From: Gemmatimonadales bacterium
GTDB taxonomy: Bacteria > Gemmatimonadota > Gemmatimonadetes > Gemmatimonadales > GWC2-71-9
Length of the DNA: 64,000 nt
NCBI GenBank assembly: GCA_036500345.1
Contig: DASYCE010000031.1
Span: forward strand, 98,728-162,727
Direction of reading: 5' to 3'
Shown here in pieces: positions 18,823 to 29,568 of this stretch. Under the pieces are notes generated by a model that was given only the letters and a program-made list of their open reading frames with translations, was not told where the DNA came from and did not search any database. The position numbers and the translations under genes are program-made. Each line of letters opens with the position of its first letter. The stretch's first letter is position 1.

Positions 18823-21800
18823 TTGCACCCCACTTCCCCACCCAATCCGGCAGGTTCGTTGACCGATCTCCGATCGCGCGTTCAAGAGTCGCTGGCGGGG
18901 AGCTATACCCTCGAGCACGAGCTCGGCGGCGGCGGGATGTCCCGCGTCTTCGTCGCCCAGGAAAACCGCCTCGAACGCCGGGTGGTGGTCAAGGTCCTCT
19001 CCCCCGAACTCGCCGCCGGGATGTCGCTGCCGCGGTTCGAGCGCGAGATCCGCGTCGCCGCCTCGCTGCAGCAGGCCAACATCGTCCAGGTCCTCGCCGC
19101 AGGCGACATCGACGGGCTGCCGTACTACACGATGCCCTACATCGAGGGCGAATCGCTTCGCGCCCGCCTCGGCCGCGGCGCGCTGTCGATCGCCGAGATC
19201 GTCAGCATCCTCCGCGACGTGTCGCGCGCGCTGGTCTACGCCCACGAGCGCGGCGTGGTCCATCGCGACATCAAGCCCGACAATGTCCTGCTCTCCGGGC
19301 ACACTGCGGTCGTCACCGATTTCGGCATTGCCAAGGCAATCAGCGCCGCCCAGACCGGCGGCGATCGCCCCGATGGCGGGGTTGCGCAGGCGACGCTCAC
19401 CCAGCTCGGCACCGCCATCGGCACCCCGGCGTACATGGCGCCGGAACAGGCCGCCGGCGATCCGTCGACCGACCATCGCGCCGATATCTACGCCTTCGGC
19501 TGCATGGCGTACGAGCTGATCGCGAGCCGGCCGCCGTTCCCGAACCTCCCGCCGCACAAGCTCGTCTTCGCGCACATGAGCGAAGCACCGCAGCCGGTCG
19601 GCGAACTCCGCGCCGATTGCCCGCCGGCGCTCGCCGCGCTGGTGATGCAGTGTCTCGCGAAGGATCCTATCCAGCGCCCGGCGAATGCCACCGAGCTGCT
19701 CCATCGCCTCGATGCGGTGGCATCGACATCCGGTACCGGCGGCGCCCTCCCGGCGATCCTGATCGGCGGGCCGAGGACGATCTGGCGCGCGCTGGGGATT
19801 TATGCCCTCGCGTTCGTCGCGGTCGCGATTCTCGCTCGTGCGGCGATCATCGCGATCGGTCTCCCCGACTGGGTCTTCACCGGCGCCCTCATCGTGATGG
19901 CGCTGGGACTCCCCGTGGTCCTCTTCACCGCGTACACCCAGGTCATCGCGCGCCGAGCAGCGACCGCGACGCCGACCTTCACCCCCGGCGGCACACAGGC
20001 CGCAGCACCGCAGGGAACGATGGCGACGCTCGCGATCAAGGCGAGCCCGCACCTCTCGTGGCAGCGCACCGCACGCGGCGGGATGATCGCCGTCGGTGTC
20101 TTCGTGCTGCTCGTCGCCGGCTTCATGACACTCCGCGCCCTCGGCATCGGCCCCGCAGGGTCGCTCCTCGCTGCCGGGAAGTTTGCTGCCAACGACAAGA
20201 TCGTCGTCGCCGCATTCGACTCGCCCGGCGCCGATTCGTCACTCGGATCGACGATCGCCGAAGCGGTTCGGACCACGCTCTCCGAGAGCCGCGCGCTGCA
20301 CGTCATACCGACCACGACGATCGTCTCGACACTCGAACAGATGAAGCGCCCCGACACCGCGCGTGTCGACTTCGCCACGGCGCGCGAGATCGCCCAGCGC
20401 AACGGTGCCAAGGCGGTCGTCGCCGGAACGATCGTCCCGGCTGGAAGCGGCTACGTCATCACGATACGGCTCGTCGCGGCCGAGAGCGGCAATGAGCTCG
20501 CGTCGTTCAGCGAATCGGCCAACAACACCGGCGACCTGATTCCCGCGGTCGATCGGGTGACCAAGTCGCTCCGTCGCAAGATCGGTGAATCGCTCAAGTC
20601 GGTGCGCGAGTCGCCACCGCTCCAGCAGGTGACGACGGCGTCGATTGGCGCCCTCCGCAGCTACGCCGCGGCGATGCGCACCAACGATGTGGTCGGCGAC
20701 TACCCGGCCGCGATCCGTCAATTCCACGACGCCATTCAGCAGGACAGCAACTTCGCGATGGCCTGGGTGCAGCTCGCCTATTCGCTGCAGACCCTTGGCG
20801 GCGCCGCCAACATCGCGGCAACCCACGCCGCTCTCACCACTGCCTTCCGACTGCGCGACCGGCTGCCTGAGCGGGAGCGGTACAACGTCGAGGGTGGCTA
20901 TTACCTCGACGTCCCGAATGATCGCGCCAAGGCGATCGTCGCCCTCCGTCGCGCAGTGGAGCTCGACTCCACCAACGACGACGCGGCGAATACCCTTGCC
21001 GTGACACTCGGTGAAACGCGTGACACCGGTGCCATCGCGGCGTACCGGCTCGCGTTGCGATCTGACTCGGCCGACGGCACGATCCTCTACAACCTCGCGA
21101 CGGAGTTCTCCCAGATCGGGCACCACTCGGGGGTCGATTCGATATTGGCGCTCCTTGCCAGCCGGCATGTGCCGTTTCCAACCGGCCCGATCCGATTCCC
21201 CGAATACTGGCAGCGGCGACAGTACGATTCGGCAGGGCTTGTCGCCCGTGCCGGCGTCGATTCCGCATCTCCGTTCCGCGTGGCGACGTCACTGGGCGGA
21301 CTGAGCCAGCTCGCGTCGGTGGAAGGGCGCCTGCACGACGCCGAGCGACTGTATGCTCAATCGAATGCCGGCAAGGCACGCGCGCGCGGCGATACCGTCA
21401 GTCCATACCAGGTGGCGTACGTCCAGGCGCTCTACGATGGAATTGACCGTCGAGACGTTCCGCGCGGTCTCGCCGACCTCGACTCCACGATGCGCGCAAC
21501 CCCTGTGGGTTCCACTCCGGTCGCCACTGACCAGAGCAATTGGGCGGCGCTGGCGTACGGCCTTCTGGGAAACGCCACCAGAGCGCGCGAGATACTCAAC
21601 CAGCATGAGGCTCGGCTCGATACACTGGCGCGCCGTCAGCAAACGGTGATGTCGGCGCGGGTACGTGGAACGATCGCGATGGCCGAGGGGAAGACCGACA
21701 GCGCCGTCAGCTGGTTCCGTCGCGGTGACGTCGAGGCCGATGGGTTGCCGACCGGCAAGTGCGAGGTCTGCACGCCGTACCTGATCGGCCTCGCGTTCGA

Positions 21801-22068
21801 TCACGGTCACCAGGCCGACTCCGCGCGGAAGTACTGGACCCAGTTCGTCGAGATGAACGGCAATGGCCGCATCAGCGCCGACCCGTATTTTTTGGCCCCG
21901 ACGCTCTACCGTCTCGGCGAGCTCTACCAGCAGGCGGGAGACTCGAAGCACGCCATCGGGTATTACAGTCGGTTTGCTGATCTCTGGGCGAAGGCCGACC
22001 CGGACCTGCAACCGCAGGTCGCCAAGGCGCGTGCACAGGTGGCGGAGTTGCTCAAGGCGAAGGGATAG
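18823..22068 (+). CDS. Serine/threonine protein kinase with transmembrane segments and C-terminal TPR-repeat region
   Basis: 1081 aa. Hanks kinase motifs LGGGGMSRVF, VVKVL, HRDIKPDNVLL, DFGIAKA, GTPAYMAPEQ. TM helices around IWRALGIYALAFVAVAILA. Long TPR-like C-terminus. The start codon is non-ATG (TTG at 18823; an in-frame TTG at 18859 is an alternative). Confidence 0.9.
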   Translation: MHPTSPPNPAGSLTDLRSRVQESLAGSYTLEHELGGGGMSRVFVAQENRLERRVVVKVLSPELAAGMSLPRFEREIRVAASLQQANIVQVLAAGDIDGLPYYTMPYIEGESLRARLGRGALSIAEIVSILRDVSRALVYAHERGVVHRDIKPDNVLLSGHTAVVTDFGIAKAISAAQTGGDRPDGGVAQATLTQLGTAIGTPAYMAPEQAAGDPSTDHRADIYAFGCMAYELIASRPPFPNLPPHKLVFAHMSEAPQPVGELRADCPPALAALVMQCLAKDPIQRPANATELLHRLDAVASTSGTGGALPAILIGGPRTIWRALGIYALAFVAVAILARAAIIAIGLPDWVFTGALIVMALGLPVVLFTAYTQVIARRAATATPTFTPGGTQAAAPQGTMATLAIKASPHLSWQRTARGGMIAVGVFVLLVAGFMTLRALGIGPAGSLLAAGKFAANDKIVVAAFDSPGADSSLGSTIAEAVRTTLSESRALHVIPTTTIVSTLEQMKRPDTARVDFATAREIAQRNGAKAVVAGTIVPAGSGYVITIRLVAAESGNELASFSESANNTGDLIPAVDRVTKSLRRKIGESLKSVRESPPLQQVTTASIGALRSYAAAMRTNDVVGDYPAAIRQFHDAIQQDSNFAMAWVQLAYSLQTLGGAANIAATHAALTTAFRLRDRLPERERYNVEGGYYLDVPNDRAKAIVALRRAVELDSTNDDAANTLAVTLGETRDTGAIAAYRLALRSDSADGTILYNLATEFSQIGHHSGVDSILALLASRHVPFPTGPIRFPEYWQRRQYDSAGLVARAGVDSASPFRVATSLGGLSQLASVEGRLHDAERLYAQSNAGKARARGDTVSPYQVAYVQALYDGIDRRDVPRGLADLDSTMRATPVGSTPVATDQSNWAALAYGLLGNATRAREILNQHEARLDTLARRQQTVMSARVRGTIAMAEGKTDSAVSWFRRGDVEADGLPTGKCEVCTPYLIGLAFDHGHQADSARKYWTQFVEMNGNGRISADPYFLAPTLYRLGELYQQAGDSKHAIGYYSRFADLWAKADPDLQPQVAKARAQVAELLKAKG

Positions 22069-22089: not shown

Positions 22090-23223
22090 CTACTGTCGCG
22101 CGAATCTCGCCCGATACAGATCGATGAACCAGTAGCCGCCCTGCGTCTCGCGCAGCTCATAGACGGTGCTGTCGTCGACGAACCCTCGGAGCGGACGGTC
22201 GATCCGCGCAGTCAGCAGCAGATCACCGGTGTGACTATCGAGCAACTGGATGATTCCGTCGTACGAACCGATGTGATAGAGATCGTCAGGACGCGTCGGC
22301 TTCGCATCGGCAGCGGTTTGATCCGCGCGCCAATCCGCTGCCGCCACATCGTACAATCCCCAGAGCACACCATCCTTCGTTTCGCGCACGCCGTGCATCT
22401 GCGGGAATGGCCGCTCGGCGCGGTCGCCTGCGTCGACCACTCGGTTGAATCGCGCGGTGTCGTACGGTGTGAACCAGTCGGGTGATCGGTCGATCGATCG
22501 TTCCAGCGTGCCGTCGACGTTCCAGAGTTCGAAATGCAGCTTGTAGTAGAGCGGTGCTGCCCAGAAGGTGTGCGCTTCATTCCCCGGGCCGAGGGCGTAA
22601 TAGCGGCCGTGGCCGTGCGGATCGCGTGGCGCCGAGGTTCCGATCCACCGGCGATCGCTGCCGTTCGAATCGATCACCACCAGCGGCTGTTCCTCGTAGA
22701 ACGCGTTCGCCACCACCACGCCATCATCGGGGAGAGTGACGCCGCGGTTGAGCAGCCACGGTTTCGCCGTGCGCGCGGTCGTCTCACGCATCGAGCTTCC
22801 ATCGAGCCATCCGAGCCGGTCGCCGGCCCCCAGGAGGAGGACGCGGTCGCCATGCCAGTGATAGGCACCCCGCACCAGCTGGTTTTCGCCGGGTCCCTGA
22901 CCGCGACGGCCAATCGCCCGGGCCGGCGCGCCGACCGAATCGAAGAGCGCCGCGACGCCGTCGACGACGGTCGGTGCCACGATGTATCGCCCATCATCGA
23001 GTCGCGTGAGAAAGGCTCGGCGATCGAGGAGGATCGAATCCGACGGCGAGCCGAGCGTGCCAATTCGCGTGAGTGCAAGGGTGCAGTCGACGCAGGTCAC
23101 TCCGCGCTCGATCACGGTGGCGCCGATCGCCGATTCGTACCCCGCGCTCGGCGCGGCCGCGTTGCGGCAGCCGGTAGCGAGGAGCGCGAGTGCGGCGGTG
23201 CGAGCCGCCGAAGCGTGCGTCAC
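22090..23223 (-). CDS. 6-bladed beta-propeller family lipoprotein
   Basis: ORF-track entry 22090..23310 trimmed to GTG at 23223 (VTHASAARTAALALLATGC, lipobox). This GTG shares 1 nt with the TAG stop of the upstream Cys-peptide gene. Motif IGRRGQGPGENQLV is paralogous to 15740..16888 and 47986..49200. Confidence 0.7.
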   Translation of the reverse strand: MTHASAARTAALALLATGCRNAAAPSAGYESAIGATVIERGVTCVDCTLALTRIGTLGSPSDSILLDRRAFLTRLDDGRYIVAPTVVDGVAALFDSVGAPARAIGRRGQGPGENQLVRGAYHWHGDRVLLLGAGDRLGWLDGSSMRETTARTAKPWLLNRGVTLPDDGVVVANAFYEEQPLVVIDSNGSDRRWIGTSAPRDPHGHGRYYALGPGNEAHTFWAAPLYYKLHFELWNVDGTLERSIDRSPDWFTPYDTARFNRVVDAGDRAERPFPQMHGVRETKDGVLWGLYDVAAADWRADQTAADAKPTRPDDLYHIGSYDGIIQLLDSHTGDLLLTARIDRPLRGFVDDSTVYELRETQGGYWFIDLYRARFARQ

Positions 23224-23468
23224 TAGTTGGGGCAAGCCTGGTGGATTTCGCACCCCGCCTGCGCCGGAGATCCGTGGCAGCCGAGGTTGTCGCCGATGCA
23301 GGTGCGGCACTCGGAGCCGGTGGGAGTGCTGCTGAAGTAATGGACGATATCCTCTTCGTCGATGCAGTGCCCGTAGGTCCCAGTCTCTTCGGCCTTGACT
23401 CGCGCCGACCGGATCATCGCAGCGCCAGCCAGTACAGTGATTGCTGCCAGAATCTGCCTTGTTCGCAT
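23223..23468 (-). CDS. Small secreted six-cysteine peptide (81-aa precursor)
   Basis: ATG at 23468 is preceded on the minus strand by CAGGAGGATATCTCG-ATG (strong SD). MRTRQILAAITVLAGAAMIRSARVKA is signal-like. The mature part contains 6 Cys (GHC...SECRTC...LGC...AGC...QAC). Confidence 0.6.
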   Translation of the reverse strand: MRTRQILAAITVLAGAAMIRSARVKAEETGTYGHCIDEEDIVHYFSSTPTGSECRTCIGDNLGCHGSPAQAGCEIHQACPN

Positions 23469-23732
23469 CGAGATATCCTCCTGTCGTGGTTTGCCATGGA
23501 GCGGGGTCTCAGAGAGGTATCGGGCGCGCCGCCCCAGTACGAGACACCATAAGGGACGTGCAGTATCAGGAGGGGTGGCACAAGGGGGGGGCGCAGTCGC
23601 GCCCTCTGTGCCAGGGGGGCCGGCGGCCCCTCAGGTTGAAAGTCGCGCAACTGTTACCGGGTAAATGCCCGACACCGCGGTCCGGGACGGTATACTCTGC
23701 GGCTCGAAGTGAACGGCCGACCGGGGGGACGG

Positions 23733-23960
23733 ATGCCGGACGACGACTCGCTCGACGGCTTGGAACCGGGGTTCGATCCTGCCGACCACTGGTGGGCGTG
23801 GCGACGTATCACACTGTGGTCAGATGAACGACTCGAAGCGAAGATCGTGTCATTGCGCGCGGCGTCCCTGCAGACCACGGATCAGACTTCGCTGCTCGCC
23901 TTTCTGGAAGATGCGTGGCGCTCCCGCCAGCAGCCGCGGCACCCGCGATACGTGCGCTAG
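23733..23960 (+). CDS. Small conserved-motif protein (WSD...DQ...FLE family, paralog of 29344..29568)
   Basis: ORF 23709..23960. ATG at 23733 is preferred (G-rich SD-like GGGGGGACGG upstream). ITLWSDERLEAKIVSLRAASLQTTDQTSLLAFLEDAWRSRQQPR aligns without gaps to the 29344..29568 product. Confidence 0.5.
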   Translation: MPDDDSLDGLEPGFDPADHWWAWRRITLWSDERLEAKIVSLRAASLQTTDQTSLLAFLEDAWRSRQQPRHPRYVR

Positions 23961-23977
23961 ATCTGCTGTTCGTTATC

Positions 23978-24550
23978 TCAAATAATATCCGTGGCGGCAG
24001 GAGTCCCGAGTCGTGCGGGTTCGTGTCGGTCTCCCGCCGAACCGATCTTTGCGATGCCAGCGCCGGAGAGTGCGCCCCAGAAGGCGAACCGAGGGATTGT
24101 CGCAATTGCAAGTGCAATCCATACGGTCGCTACTGGCGAGATCACGCTCGCTGTGATTCCCGCGAGGCATGCGCCGGCCAGCGCGCCTGCGATCATGCCA
24201 TACGCTGCCCCGCGCAACGTCGTCAGCTGCGACTCGGGGCGGCGGCGCTCAGCAAATGACACGAATGCGCTGAACAAGAGTCCCACGGTGAATCCGACGA
24301 TTGCGGTAGCGATGGTGAACAGGAGGAAGACGACTCCCCACCAGGGACTGTGGTGTGGCCATCTGACGGAAACGATTCCGATCCATCCGGCGGCATGCAG
24401 GACGACTTCCCCTAGCACCCAGGAGATTCCCCAGATTGAGGCGACGCGCCAGCCGGCGATGATCCGTCGTGCAAGCCCGGGTGTACCGAGCCGCGCGGGC
24501 GGTGGCGGCGAATCCGAACGCGCCAATCTCACTGCGCGACCCCGACCCAA
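23978..24550 (-). CDS. Hypothetical integral membrane protein (about 4 TM helices)
   Basis: 190 aa with hydrophobic segments (WGVVFLLFTIATAIVGFTVGLLFSAFV, AAYGMIAGALAGACLAGITASVI, VWIALAIATIPRFAFWGAL). Overlaps the upstream gene end by 22 nt. No family recognised. Confidence 0.45.
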   Translation of the reverse strand: MGRGRAVRLARSDSPPPPARLGTPGLARRIIAGWRVASIWGISWVLGEVVLHAAGWIGIVSVRWPHHSPWWGVVFLLFTIATAIVGFTVGLLFSAFVSFAERRRPESQLTTLRGAAYGMIAGALAGACLAGITASVISPVATVWIALAIATIPRFAFWGALSGAGIAKIGSAGDRHEPARLGTPAATDII

Positions 24551-25464
24551 TCAGTGAGCGGAACTTCCCGTGTTCCGAGAGTCCCCTTCGACCGGCCGAG
24601 CAATTCATTGAGCGACACGCGATTGGCAGCGAAGCCGGATAGGTCGTCGGCCTTTACGCGGAGGGTGAACGCGCGCTCGCCGGTGCGGGCGCAGAAGCTG
24701 CCGGAGCCATTCAGCATTTCATCACTCTTCAGTGTCACGTCGATGCGAAAGCCGAATTGCGGAGTGCCGTGCTGTACGGTGTTGCCGATCGAGCGGAGGA
24801 GTGGCGCGATCCCCTCGCGCACCAGCGTTCCAACCCTCGTTGGAAGTGCATCGGTGCATGCGTAGGTCGGCTCGCCGGTCCGGAGGGCGAGATAGCGGAC
24901 GCCATCGAGCGTGTCGACGCGAATGGTGTCGCCGGGGGTGTATCTCCGGAGGACGCGGCGAAGTTCGTGGCGCGCCAGTGTATCGCCCGCGGCGGCGGCG
25001 GCGCCGAGGAGCCGATCGATGGCGAGGTCTTCAGCGGCGGCCTGGACCTGCGCACTATCAGCGGAAGTGGCAAATACCTGATGCACGAGCCACGCGGAAT
25101 CGCGCGCGGCGAGGTCGAGCCGCATGGTGCCGCCGCCGTCAAGAATGATGCTGATCCGCGCCGGCGCGACGCGCCGAACGGAAGTCACGCGCCACGGATG
25201 CGGGAAGGTCAACCCGATTCCAGGCCATCCGGCGGAGCCGTTGACCAGAAGATCGTTGCCGCGGCGGTCGAGGGCGGCCGTGTAGAGCGGGAAGCCGGTT
25301 GAATCGCGCTCGGCGTGGAAGGTAGCCATCGGCAGGCGGACGGCGACCGCAATGTGCGGTGCGGCGCGGAGAGGCTGCTGGGCGTGGAGGAGGAGGGGCA
25401 GGATCAGGATTGCGGTGAGCATCAATCCAATTGCGGTTGGCGTTATGTCTAATTTGTTCTTCAT
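24529..25464 (-). CDS. Hypothetical secreted protein
   Basis: ORF-track entry 24529..25653 trimmed to ATG at 25464 (MKNKLDITPTAIGLMLTAILILPLLLHAQQ, signal peptide). 311 aa, no recognisable domain. Confidence 0.55.
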   Translation of the reverse strand: MKNKLDITPTAIGLMLTAILILPLLLHAQQPLRAAPHIAVAVRLPMATFHAERDSTGFPLYTAALDRRGNDLLVNGSAGWPGIGLTFPHPWRVTSVRRVAPARISIILDGGGTMRLDLAARDSAWLVHQVFATSADSAQVQAAAEDLAIDRLLGAAAAAGDTLARHELRRVLRRYTPGDTIRVDTLDGVRYLALRTGEPTYACTDALPTRVGTLVREGIAPLLRSIGNTVQHGTPQFGFRIDVTLKSDEMLNGSGSFCARTGERAFTLRVKADDLSGFAANRVSLNELLGRSKGTLGTREVPLTDWVGVAQ

Positions 25465-25662
25465 CGATGGGCCCACTTTCGCGGAAGCCGAACGCAACAG
25501 CATCAAGCCAATTACCCGTATTGTCTTGCGAGGTGGCCGTGGCGGACTCGAGTCGGATCTTGCAGAAATCAGTCGCGGTCGTCCGAGCCACGCGGCCGCC
25601 GCTCGCAGCCCCGTCCGCCCGCGACACTGACGACTCGCGATCCTAGGACACAAAGCGGGGCA

Positions 25663-26364
25663 TCATCCGATTGACCACCACCAGCTCGACTGGTAAATCG
25701 TCATGGCGCGTTCCTGCCAAGTGGCTTTCTGCCACATCGCTTGGCGTGGCGAGCCACCGTTTTTTGCGGACTCCTCTAGGCGATTGTAAACATCCTCAGT
25801 AATAATTGACGCATAACTCCCATCGCGCAGGCCGCACAGCTTGGCTGCATAATTCGCCGCCCGACCAACCCACACTAAGTCGTTAGTGCCGCGAATGCCG
25901 GTGCGGGCCACGAACAACTTGCTTGTGTCAATGCCGACTACGTGCTGGACCTTGTACGTTGTGCTGGTGTAGCGCTTTTGAATCTCCGTATTCAGGATAT
26001 TCTTTACGGCCCAGTTGAGCTTGAGGGCGGTCTTCGCGGCCTGTGAATTCTTTGACTCTCCGATGTACACAGCCATCACACGATCGCCGTCAAACGAAGT
26101 AATATCACCGCCGTTGTCACGGATGATCCGACATGCCAGCCTCAGGTAGCTCTTGTAGACCTCAGCAGCAAACCAATCCTTGTAGCCGTTAACAAGATCC
26201 GTCGAGTCAACAAGATCCGCATAGAGCACGGTCGCGTCCAGCTCGACCCCATCGTTATCTAGTTTCACCGACTCCGTCGTGGGAATCGTGGCACCCTTGC
26301 GACGCTTCCACTCCGACGAAAGAATCGCGATCACTTCTGCCCGCAGCTCAGCCGCATTGGCCAT
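25663..26364 (-). CDS. Stand-alone class III nucleotidyl cyclase (Pycsar PycC-like candidate)
   Basis: 233 aa. Cyclase core motifs: ATVLYADLVDSTDL (metal Asp), GDITSFDGDRVMAVY (second Asp), VARTGIRGTNDLVWVGRAANYAAKLC. No sensor or TM domain. 8 nt downstream of a cNMP-binding effector gene. Lower GC than the flanks. Confidence 0.85.
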   Translation of the reverse strand: MANAAELRAEVIAILSSEWKRRKGATIPTTESVKLDNDGVELDATVLYADLVDSTDLVNGYKDWFAAEVYKSYLRLACRIIRDNGGDITSFDGDRVMAVYIGESKNSQAAKTALKLNWAVKNILNTEIQKRYTSTTYKVQHVVGIDTSKLFVARTGIRGTNDLVWVGRAANYAAKLCGLRDGSYASIITEDVYNRLEESAKNGGSPRQAMWQKATWQERAMTIYQSSWWWSIG

Positions 26365-26372
26365 ACCAACTC

Positions 26373-27338
26373 CTATCGTCTTCCCAGTCTATCGATGTCA
26401 GCGCGAATTCTCGCACAACAAGGCGCCAGTCTCTGTGCAAGCGGCTTGGGGCCGCGACGCACATAGGGCACGCAAGTGACTCCGAGTAAATCGGACGGCA
26501 GCCGAAGGTCCGTCCCCTTGGGCAACAGCACGAACACGCGCTCGCGACCAAGCGCACCCATGAGCAACCCAATTTCGAAGATCACGTTGTCTCGCGGAGA
26601 CGGCTTCTTCTTGCCCCGGGACACTGTAATATCGTCAGCAGTCAGCAGCAGAGCGGCGCAATCCGCATCCTTTGAAAGCTCAACCAGGCTTTCAATGAAC
26701 GTGCGGGACGTCTCGAACACCCCGTCACTCCATAGCCGTACTATCAGATCCGCACCCTGAACAGCATCCCGGATGCCGGTCGCAACCGGCAATCCTTCAG
26801 TCGAAGACCCGATAAACAGAATCGGTTGATCGTTTGGTGTTCGAATAAATCGATTCCGATCCCTGAGGCGGCGGGCAATTTCCACCGCAATCCGTCTCCA
26901 CAGAATGGGATAGTCGTCTGCGATGCGCGAAAACTTGTCCTCCGTGATCCGCATCGCGGTCACCCGTTCTGTCGCTGTGATCGTAGCGCTCCGCCGCGCT
27001 AGCGAGTCAACAAGGGCCAGCTCACCGACATGCGTCCCCGCCTCACGCGTTGCGATGTCACGGCCGTTTACACTGATTGCGACGGCACCGGAGAGCAACA
27101 GAAACAGATCGTTGTCCGATGCATTCTGAATCGAGAGCGACTCGCCGGCGTTGTAGTGGCGGATCGTACCCGCTTTGATCAATAGGCTAGCGAGTGCAGC
27201 ATCGCCGGAAACGAGGGTTTGCTGTTCGACAACTTGGCGCAAGCGCCGTTTACCGGACTTGCCCGTAAACGTGAGGCCAGGATTCGTCGACCGCTGCTTG
27301 GCTGCGCGGCGCGGCCGAAGCTGACGGCTCCTCATCAT
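26373..27338 (-). CDS. Cyclic-nucleotide-binding domain fused to a TIR-like (PF10137-type) domain; predicted cNMP-gated NADase-type effector
   Basis: 321 aa. CNB fold with phosphate-binding cassette GTHVGELALVDSLARRSATITA. C-terminal ILFIGSSTEGLPVA...AALLLTADD...PRDNVIFEIGLLMGALGRERVFVLLP matches the bacterial TIR-like pattern, including the conserved Glu. Confidence 0.85.
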   Translation of the reverse strand: MMRSRQLRPRRAAKQRSTNPGLTFTGKSGKRRLRQVVEQQTLVSGDAALASLLIKAGTIRHYNAGESLSIQNASDNDLFLLLSGAVAISVNGRDIATREAGTHVGELALVDSLARRSATITATERVTAMRITEDKFSRIADDYPILWRRIAVEIARRLRDRNRFIRTPNDQPILFIGSSTEGLPVATGIRDAVQGADLIVRLWSDGVFETSRTFIESLVELSKDADCAALLLTADDITVSRGKKKPSPRDNVIFEIGLLMGALGRERVFVLLPKGTDLRLPSDLLGVTCVPYVRRGPKPLAQRLAPCCARIRADIDRLGRR

Positions 27339-27797
27339 GCCCTAGAGATACGATTGGAGGAAAATGATGACATGCGCTCTTCGCCTAACTTCCCCTTCGA
27401 TCCGATCGCCAATGGTGTAAATGATTTGGACATCGTACCGATTGATTGGACGACTGGTCTGCCTCACATCGTCAAATTCCTGAACCGACAGAGATTGGAT
27501 CTCCGACCGATAGCATGTCATGCGGTGTGCCGTGAAGTGGCCAAATCCAGATGGACTGAAAGTTTCAGGTGAAACGCTATTCCAGGATCTGGATGAAGTC
27601 CCTCAACCTTCCTGTTCAGCGGCAGCTAGTTTGCGACTGACTCGCGCCCGTGGGACCCGGATGTACATCAGGATGCCAATCAGGGGACTGAATGCCCTGA
27701 GAATCAGCGTTTCCAGATCATTTGGCGCAGCTGCACCAAATAGCGCCATAACAGATTGCTTCCGCGCTAAATCTTCTATTCCCATTGTCTTAGGAAA

Positions 27798-27871
27798 TAG
27801 CTGGGGCGGGACTCGAACCCGCGACCCCGGCATTATGAGTGCCGTGCTCTAACCAGCTGAGCTACCCAGCC
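27798..27871 (-). tRNA. tRNA-Met (anticodon CAT; elongator-like, though lysidine-modified Ile2 cannot be excluded); no encoded CCA
   Basis: Minus strand: GGCTGGG TA GCTC AGCTGGTTA GAGC A CGGCA CTCATAA TGCCG GGGTC GCGGG TTCGAGT CCCGC CCCAGCT A. This is a full cloverleaf. The anticodon lies at plus 27835..27837. Close to the E. coli elongator tRNA-Met pattern. G1-U72 wobble at the acceptor end. Confidence 0.9.
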
Positions 27872-28005
27872 ATACATACCACTGTACCGCCGCCGAGAAC
27901 TTGGCGGACCGTCAGCCAATCCTCAAGTGGCGGCTGGGTCGGCAACCAAGGGGCATCCGGCCGGGCGAACGGCCCACTCGAGGCTCGAATGCTTAGCTTT
28001 TCTTC

Positions 28006-28411: not shown

Positions 28412-28496
28412 TCTCCATCGGCAATCCGGACCATCTCGCATCTAGTCCGACCGCTCCCAGCGCATGCCCGCACCGATCCGCGCCTTGTCCTCCCCC

Positions 28497-29121
28497 TCCC
28501 CGACCATGTCCACGACATCCCGGCCTCGTCCCGCGGCGTCCCGGCCCAGTCCACCTGACTCCCGCCCTCGCACTTCTACTTCACGACCATGTCCACCGTG
28601 ATCCAGCGTTGTCCAACACAAACCCGGCCTCGCACTTCTACTTCGCCGCCATGTCCATCGACGCCCGGCCCATGTCCACCCTCGCCCGGCGCATTCCGTC
28701 GGTGACCCGACCTCGGCCCACTTAATTCACGCCCAAGTCCACCATCGCCCACCCTCGTCCATCAACAGCCCGCCCTCGCCCCGATTGACCCGGCCGATGT
28801 CCAGTGTCTCCCGGCCGATGTCCACAGTCGCCCGGCCAATTCCCGCGGCGACCCGGCCCCGGTCCACTGACTTCCCGGCCATGTCCACCGTCGACGCTCC
28901 TTGTCCATCGGATTCCCGGCTTCGGCCAACTACTCCCGGCGATGTTCCAGTGAATCCCGGCCTCGTCCCACTGACTCCCAGCCCCGTCCCACTGACTCCC
29001 GGACCTGTCCATGTGACTCCCGGCCTCGTCCAATAATTCCCGGCTCTTTCCAACTGACTTCCGCCCTTGTCCAACGAACTCCCCGTATTGTCCAGGTGAC
29101 TCCCGGCCTTGTCCCACTGAC
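28497..29121. repeat. Degenerate tandem array with 21-bp period, about 30 units, consensus near TCCCGGCCNNGTCCACNNNGA(C)
   Basis: Phased by hand into 30 consecutive units starting at 28497, 28518, 28539 ... 29101. 25 units are 21 nt and 5 are 20 nt, giving 625 nt. Conserved CCCGG and GTCCA cores at fixed phase. Examples: 28955 tcccggcctcgtcccactgac, 28976 tcccagccccgtcccactgac, 29101 tcccggccttgtcccactgac. No single ORF spans it. Confidence 0.85.
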
Positions 29122-29343
29122 TCACGCGTTTGCCCGCGTGAATACCGACTATCGCAACTTCGGCAACTCCCCTCACACGCCGAGCTGCGACGTTCACACG
29201 TCGCTACGATACCATCCAGATCTCACCATGGGGTTTTCATCAATCGACGAGCGATGACCGCCAAGCATCCACCCAGCCCACGCAGCAGCGTCTCAGGGGG
29301 TGAGCCCGCTACCCGCGGCGAGGGCAAATCATTCGCCCCCTTT

Positions 29344-29568
29344 TCACTCTATCGGTGGTGAGCCGCGCCGCTTCGCCCGCTCGGCGCGCGCCTCTTCGAG
29401 GAAGTGCAGGACCGCATCCTGGTCCGGCGTACGTTGCGACAGATTCCGCATCGCATCAAGCAGTATATCCAGCTCCGCATCGGACCACGCTGCCAGCGAG
29501 TGACTGTTGCCTTGCCGCCGATGCGCTGAACCTCCCGTGTAATCCCCTGCTCCAGATTCGGGCGTCAT
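29344..29568 (-). CDS. Small conserved-motif protein (WSD...DQ...FLE family, paralog of 23733..23960)
   Basis: 74 aa. ATG at 29568 is preceded on the minus strand by GGAGGCGTT-ATG (strong SD). LAAWSDAELDILLDAMRNLSQRTPDQDAVLHFLEEARAERAKRR aligns gap-free with the 23733..23960 product. Confidence 0.6.
   Translation of the reverse strand: MTPESGAGDYTGGSAHRRQGNSHSLAAWSDAELDILLDAMRNLSQRTPDQDAVLHFLEEARAERAKRRGSPPIE

Follow-up and report, generated by a model that had tools for sequence, protein, structure and literature searches.

The closest described relatives of the locus presented here are the Pycsar anti-phage systems, in which a stand-alone nucleotide cyclase (PycC) is paired with an effector such as PycTIR. 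The cyclase of Burkholderia cepacia makes cUMP (3′,5′-cyclic uridine monophosphate), and cUMP activates the NADase of B. cepacia PycTIR in vitro (PMC9117128). This enzyme, BcPycC of strain LK29 (PDB 7R65), is a clade B uridylate cyclase; PycC enzymes of clades A–D make cUMP, and the pyrimidine is selected by residues Y50, D94, and R97 of BcPycC (PMC11224242). In PsPycTIR from Pseudovibrio sp., cUMP is contacted by G86, E87, A89, R97, S98, R138, and N143, and oligomerization needs the salt-bridge pair R12–E114 (PMC11224242). The pocket of the related NADase SfSTING is lined by F6, S10, W33, F37, L47, R78, N80, the catalytic E84, and D110 (PMC9402430). Two adjacent genes at positions 25663–27338 of a 64,000-nucleotide (nt) stretch of contig DASYCE010000031.1 from a Gemmatimonadales bacterium (the whole stretch is termed the window) were compared with these systems. 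With a probability of roughly 0.85, the two genes make up a canonical Pycsar operon for anti-phage defense, of the PycTIR type, that would signal by cUMP and act by abortive infection through depletion of nicotinamide adenine dinucleotide (NAD+).

The Pycsar assignment is supported by full-length matches to the PycC and PycTIR hidden Markov models, the pairing of PF00027 with PF10137 in the effector, the identity of the best solved relatives (7R65, 8JSJ, and 8JSK), residue conservation, the operon junction, synteny in 64 of 80 genomes, and low GC content. The features of the locus are as follows.

26373..27338, minus strand: pycTIR, effector with an N-terminal extension, a CNBD (cyclic-nucleotide-binding domain), and a TIR NADase domain (open reading frame, PADLOC, PDB)
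26835..27269, minus strand: N-terminal extension and CNBD, residues 24–168 (gap-free alignment to 8JSK; PF00027 at residues 60–142)
26463..26816, minus strand: TIR (PF10137) NADase domain, residues 175–292 (Pfam PF10137; alignment to 7UN8 and 9LMQ)
26370..26373, minus strand: GGAG ribosome-binding site for pycC (sequence reading)
25663..26364, minus strand: pycC, stand-alone class III-type nucleotide cyclase, 233 amino acids (aa) (PADLOC PycC models; 7R65)
27339..27796, minus strand: upstream intergenic spacer of 458 bp, presumed promoter region (GC 0.507)
27797..27872, minus strand: tRNA-Met (CAT), conserved backbone landmark, with the cassette starting just 3′ of it (ARAGORN; Rfam RF00005, 70.6 bits)

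The listing of open reading frames (ORFs) gives 321 aa for PycTIR and 233 aa for PycC, with a gap of 8 nt (26365–26372) between them. The junction reads cgaTAGGAGttggtATG, and the GGAG Shine–Dalgarno sequence of pycC overlaps the TAG stop codon of pycTIR. The short gap and the ribosome-binding site at the junction indicate a single operon. After codon 2, the next in-frame ATG, GTG, or TTG of pycTIR is the TTG of codon 33, and the PycTIR structures are matched from residue 24 onward; the true start is thus the ATG at 27338/27335. The JGI gene call of 289 aa, which starts at the TTG of codon 33, is too short and, by dropping 27243–27338 of the minus strand, cuts off a functionally important N-terminal extension; the longer form of 320/321 aa is correct because PycTIR homology extends from residue 24. 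The JGI annotation also calls an ORF of 117 aa on the plus strand (27219–27572), opposite the pycTIR start, which has no Pfam or PADLOC match and is probably spurious. The small minus-strand ORF at 27603–27833 in the upstream spacer is probably spurious as well.

The gene structure, domain content, family membership, and retention of all published functional residues are seen in the sequence. The effector contains a Pfam cNMP_binding domain (PF00027, residues 60–142, E = 1.6e-12) followed by PF10137 (residues 175–292, E = 3.8e-28). The PADLOC PycTIR model PDLC02371 matches end to end (residues 24–320, 1.5e-87), and the PADLOC Effector/TIR models match at 7e-98. The solved PycTIR structures are the top matches in the PDB. 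NpPycTIR of Novosphingobium pentaromativorans (8JSJ) aligns with residues 24–317 at 34% identity over 294 residues (2.7e-45), and the cUMP-bound CNBD of PsPycTIR (8JSK) aligns without gaps at 36% identity (3.6e-26). The domain order is the same in all three proteins. In the 8JSK alignment, every cUMP contact of PsPycTIR is kept: G105, E106, A108, R116, and S117 form the phosphate-binding cassette, and R157 and N162 (the equivalent of N143) are the base contacts. The R12–E114 pair is conserved as R31–E133. Apart from the identity of 34–36%, the effector differs from the two characterized proteins in having Thr (T23) at the position of PsPycTIR R4, and it carries 23 extra basic N-terminal residues that most homologues do not have.

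The TIR domain was aligned with SfSTING (7UN8) and Cap12 (9LMQ). All nine pocket residues of SfSTING are identical in the effector (F175, S179, W203, F208, L218, R249, N251, E255, and D283), with E255 as the catalytic Glu. Since the pocket and the ligand-binding residues are intact, the operon looks catalytically competent. The original prediction regarded PF10137, in place of a classical TIR module, as unusual; this view is not sustained, because PF10137 is the defining domain of PycTIR and is named by Pfam "CAP12/Pycsar effector protein, TIR domain". The same PF10137 NADase domain with an identical active-site pocket occurs in the Cap12/TIR-STING effectors of CBASS, where ligand-induced oligomerization likewise leads to NAD+ hydrolysis. 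The sensor of Cap12, however, is a STING or SAVED domain, which reads the cyclic di- or oligonucleotide product of a CD-NTase, whereas that of the window protein is a CNBD for a cyclic mononucleotide. Identity as a CBASS Cap12 was rejected: the NCBIfam Cap12 equivalog models reach 102 bits against a cutoff of 450 bits and cover residues 173–295 only, and the adjacent gene encodes a class III cyclase instead of a CD-NTase.

The cyclase, of 233 aa, consists of one domain alone and has no sensor or transmembrane (TM) segment. No Pfam family, PF00211 included, matches it at E ≤ 1. Two PADLOC PycC models match over the full length (PDLC00766, 7.2e-97; PDLC02367, 1.1e-92), and the best match in the PDB is BcPycC (7R65), at 1.3e-56, with 47.7% of 222 aligned residues identical. 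Next in the PDB, at about 1e-5, come ordinary class III adenylate cyclases. PycC enzymes of clade A have two domains, those of clade D a C-terminal zinc ribbon (C221/C223/C260/H263), and those of clade E form cyclic CMP (cCMP); a sensor or TM domain is lacking in clades B–E. The clade D enzyme AnPycC (8JSZ) matches at 6.6e-4, and neither the clade A structure (6YII) nor the clade E structure (8JSF) is among the PDB matches at E ≤ 0.01. By these PDB match scores, the nearest solved relative of the cyclase is BcPycC, the uridylate cyclase of clade B, and the cyclase may be called clade-B-like. The metal-binding residues D52 and D96 of BcPycC align with D50 and D94, and the pyrimidine-selecting Y50/D94/R97 align with Y48/D92/R95. 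These five residues do not vary among 80 related cyclases, which come from different species.

Much of the original prediction is borne out by these comparisons. The two minus-strand genes and their 8-nt spacing (26365..26372) lie at the coordinates it gave, and all of the peptide motifs that it quoted are present in the translations. The proposed fusion of a cNMP-binding domain to a TIR-like domain is recovered by PF00027, PF10137, and the PADLOC PycTIR model (1.5e-87), the catalytic Glu that it described as conserved is E255, and the cyclase is as bare as it had supposed. Both PADLOC models match end to end and the best PDB matches are solved PycC and PycTIR proteins, in agreement with the suggested Pycsar abortive-infection architecture. 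Among the Pfam families that it named, PF00027 and PF10137 match the effector and PF00211 does not match the cyclase. It had also held that the sequence could not reveal the product nucleotide. The published specificity residues are, however, conserved: the residues that select UTP and uracil are kept in the two proteins, and the predicted product of the cyclase and signal of the system is cUMP.

Gene order was analyzed in 80 species-representative genomes that carry the same cyclase subfamily, with proteins 52–63% identical to that of the window. These genomes span Acidobacteriota, Verrucomicrobiota, Planctomycetota, Gemmatimonadota, Leptospira, Myxococcota, Chloroflexota, and others. A PycTIR homologue lies directly upstream of the cyclase on the same strand in 64 of the 80, at a distance of less than 100 nt in 58 of those, and downstream of the cyclase in none. 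Directly upstream in 11 others is an ORF of 120–220 aa with three TM segments (PycTM-like). One genome has no recognizable effector beside the cyclase, and four provide too little upstream sequence to judge. The effector-first order is the norm for this PycC subfamily. The pair is thus syntenic elsewhere, and the gene order that the original prediction called inverted, and thought might mark an undescribed variant, is the usual one. The locus is an ordinary intact copy of Pycsar, normal for its family in gene order and TIR type, and not a new variant. For writing detection rules, the effector-first rule for this subfamily is useful.

The cyclase family is large, with 7,300 database proteins at E ≤ 1e-10 and more than 100 at 56–65% identity. 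The closest named cyclases come from metagenome-assembled genomes of Gemmatimonadales and Acidobacteriota. On an annotated conjugative Agrobacterium plasmid, a "TIR domain-containing protein" is followed by the cyclase after 5 nt, and the pair adjoins an integrase, an HNH endonuclease, a UvrD helicase, and an AAA ATPase. A search of a phage collection with PycTIR gave no match. Adjacency to a tRNA was considered as a trait of the family and rejected, since a tRNA lies within 4 kb in only 2 of 60 related loci.

The cassette occupies a 2.1-kb patch of low GC content (25663–27796) just downstream of tRNA-Met. The GC content is 0.548 for pycC, 0.586 for pycTIR, and 0.507 for the upstream spacer, compared with 0.658 for the window and 0.64–0.675 for the neighboring genes; the original prediction of a low-GC patch beside a tRNA is correct. 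An identical cassette is found on four independent metagenome contigs, the longest of 340 kb (JGI sample 3300036781). A scan with the enolase encoded nearby gave 80 enolase-matched loci with up to 81% enolase identity; in 66 of them the downstream flank is 400 nt or longer. The order enolase/DivIC–tRNA-Met is present in 17 of these 66, and the tRNA follows within 40–174 nt in 10 of the 17, compared with 1.8 kb in the window. Neither PycTIR nor PycC was found in any of the 80 loci, and the sequence after the tRNA varies from locus to locus. The cassette is a small insert gained by horizontal transfer, and it lies on the downstream side of tRNA-Met, in a lineage-specific variable region of an uncultured Gemmatimonadota-like genome. 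In that lineage, the region downstream of the conserved enolase–DivIC–tRNA-Met backbone is a variable slot. With this locus, an intact Pycsar-TIR operon is on record for an uncultured Gemmatimonadota-like genome from soil or sediment; beyond annotation, its importance is small.

The mechanism proposed for the operon is modeled on the characterized systems, from which the trigger, the product nucleotide, the activation of the NADase, and the defense phenotype are inferred. PycC would be a homodimeric class III-type cyclase that is inactive until phage infection. Upon infection it would convert UTP to 3′,5′-cUMP by means of the metal-binding residues D50 and D94, and Y48, D92, and R95 would narrow the base pocket so that purines do not fit. 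The cUMP would bind to the CNBD of PycTIR with its cyclic phosphate and ribose held by G105, E106, A108, R116, and S117, and with the uracil stacked on R157 and hydrogen-bonded to N162. Binding is expected to cause dimerization of the CNBD and filament-like oligomerization via the N-terminal extension, with R31 and E133 forming the salt bridge. The TIR domains would thereby be joined into composite NADase sites, with the catalytic E255 and with D283 supplied by the partner. Activation of the effector by a cyclic pyrimidine would deplete NAD+, and the infected cell would stop growing or die before phage progeny are released. Sensing by the cyclase and filament formation by full-length PycTIR are questions that this locus does not make more tractable.

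The B. cepacia LK29 system (PMC11224242, PMC9117128) is the nearest precedent for this scheme. The two share a stand-alone cyclase of ∼230 aa, the same metal-binding Asp pair, the same Y/D/R pocket, a CNBD-TIR (PF10137) effector, and the two-gene operon; the cUMP signal and the depletion of NAD+ are predicted for the window locus.

Several observations weigh against the assignment. The closest characterized proteins are distant, with BcPycC only 48% identical to the cyclase and the nearest effector only 34% identical to PycTIR. The cyclase belongs to a tight 233-aa subfamily outside which BcPycC falls, and the members of this subfamily are 47–56% identical to BcPycC. Among themselves, members from Acidobacteriota, Verrucomicrobiota, Planctomycetota, Leptospira, and other groups are about 60% identical. 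The uracil-reading Asn (N162) is kept in 31 of 63 subfamily partner effectors; the remainder have Ser (16), Gly (7), or another residue (9). A sister branch of Pycsar-1 with the same architecture, Pucsar, signals with 3′,5′-cyclic GMP (cGMP) (bioRxiv 10.64898/2026.08.12.744502). A scan for the sigma-70 consensus upstream of pycTIR, which covered only this one promoter type, gave no match. No integrase is present in the region around the cassette, and a search for inverted repeats and for direct repeats of the 3′ end of tRNA-Met over about 25.0–28.3 kb and 22–30.5 kb gave no att-like repeats.

The alternative that survives best keeps the architecture and changes the signal: the cyclase would make a purine nucleotide (3′,5′-cGMP, as in Pucsar) or cCMP, and that nucleotide would be the one recognized by the CNBD-TIR effector. 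Pucsar loci likewise combine a stand-alone cyclase with CNBD-TIR or three-TM effectors, and both effector types are used by the subfamily of the window cyclase. Further points of likeness are the two-gene logic and the activation of the NADase by filament formation. In a Pucsar figure legend the effector is named ahead of the cyclase, an order that refers to the legend only. In the effector PfPucTIR, the guanine is stacked on R136 and contacted by R140 (bioRxiv 10.64898/2026.08.12.744502). The equivalents of these residues in the window effector, R157 and R161, are invariant in the subfamily, and the position of N162 is variable among the relatives. Equivalents of R157 and R161 are, however, also present in the cUMP receptor PsPycTIR, so these arginines do not discriminate. 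The "RN" pair R142–N143 is found in PsPycTIR, a proven cUMP-specific receptor, and the window effector keeps the Asn.

The residues of the cyclase argue for cUMP. The Pucsar cyclase PfPucC is without the restrictive Y/D/R pocket and reads guanine by Glu118 and Lys195, with Glu118 placed four residues before the second metal-binding Asp; the Y/D/R residues of BcPycC are considered by the same authors to exclude guanine sterically (bioRxiv 10.64898/2026.08.12.744502). In the window cyclase, the corresponding Y48/D92/R95 are present and invariant, and the position of Glu118 is occupied by S90 (Ala in most relatives). Membership in Pucsar, judged here against its published description, was rejected on these residues. 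For cCMP, the determinants F100/R142/Q144 of the cyclase EaPycC (PMC11224242) are unmatched in the window cyclase, and the clade E and clade A structures are missing from the PDB matches at E ≤ 0.01, compared with 1e-56 for clade B. A purine or cCMP signal is thus unlikely. The retention of Asn in only about half of the 63 partner effectors nevertheless suggests that ligand specificity may not be uniform. There is a small chance that some members of the 233-aa subfamily use a signal other than cUMP or read cUMP differently, and that the window locus is one of them despite its Asn. Co-variation of cyclase columns with the state of Asn162 was examined and gave no convincing signal, the comparison being confounded by phylogeny.

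It is highly unlikely that the pair is a decayed or silent relic, with genes that are intact by eye and unexpressed or nonfunctional. Beside the empty sigma-70 scan, no obvious Shine–Dalgarno site is seen upstream of pycTIR on reading the sequence, and no terminator-like hairpin was found downstream of pycC on its own strand; the terminator-like matches lie on the opposite strand or fall within coding sequence. On the other hand, the reading frames are complete, each catalytic and ligand-binding residue that was checked is conserved, the four contigs carry the identical cassette, and the promoter scan was limited to one type. A housekeeping or regulatory cyclic-nucleotide pair with no immune role, as might be supposed from public annotations of the cyclase as "class 3 adenylate cyclase" or "adenylate/guanylate cyclase domain-containing protein", is hardly credible, because the output domain of the receptor is neither a DNA-binding nor a kinase domain but a TIR NADase, whose catalytic pocket is intact, and because the pair is patchy across many phyla at about 60% identity, lies on conjugative plasmids near mobile and defense-type genes, is absent from the closest enolase-matched relatives, and has atypical GC content, all of which are hallmarks of mobile defense cargo.

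Other arrangements occur around the same cyclase family. In two relatives of the PycTM type (L019, 2813–3607, and L026, 237–1040), a second cyclase-like ORF, about 265 aa long and carrying a "...ACVYIDMVNS"-like motif, is present, and the order is second cyclase-like ORF, three-TM effector, PycC. This extra ORF fits a remark in the Pucsar preprint on multiple cyclases per locus (bioRxiv 10.64898/2026.08.12.744502). On a Sulfitobacter plasmid (NZ_CP139711.1, L166, 1235–3675), a PycC homologue of 50% identity follows a WYL-domain protein and a CNBD-only protein of 209 aa without a TIR domain, and a second, larger cyclase is encoded divergently, giving a different arrangement of effector and regulator.

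Downstream of pycC are four co-directional ORFs (22090–25503, minus strand) of 324, 182, 81, and 377 aa, which form a lineage-specific block. Their GC content at third codon positions is intermediate (0.67–0.76), compared with 0.83–0.86 for the enolase and the kinase described below. None of the four, nor any of the small upstream ORFs, has a Pfam or PADLOC match. The 324-, 182-, and 377-aa proteins have no homologue in the 80 enolase-matched loci, and a metagenome scan with the 324-aa protein gave no match. With no Pfam or PADLOC match and a host-like GC content, the neighboring ORFs were rejected as additional Pycsar components. The sole candidate from the repeat search for an integration signature, a 26-nt match of 73% between 25520–25545 and 27784–27809 inside the neighboring ORF, was judged to be chance. 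On the plus strand at 18859–22068 is a Ser/Thr kinase of 1069 aa with TM and TPR regions; PADLOC PD-T4-6 kinase models match it at 2.6e-82 in the kinase domain only (residues 11–296), which most likely reflects generic Hanks-kinase similarity rather than a defense gene.

An Rfam scan of 22–31.5 kb returned the tRNA only. The spacer from tRNA-Met to the DivIC/enolase genes, usually only 40–170 nt long in relatives, holds in the window about 700 bp of degenerate tandem repeats (28414–29153) with a 21-nt unit of roughly GTCCACTGACTCCCGGCCTCG and an additional period of 62–63. The array is C-rich on the plus strand, with a GC skew down to −0.385, and the ORFs that cross it look like low-complexity artifacts. 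Two small ORFs, of 83 aa (23709–23960, plus strand) and 74 aa (29344–29568, minus strand), are paralogous, with 36% identity over 44 aa (E = 2e-7) and a shared WSD..L...FLE(D/E)A motif, and have no Pfam or PADLOC match. Oriented toward each other, they flank a stretch of roughly 5.4 kb in which the Pycsar cassette, the tRNA, and the repeat array are located.

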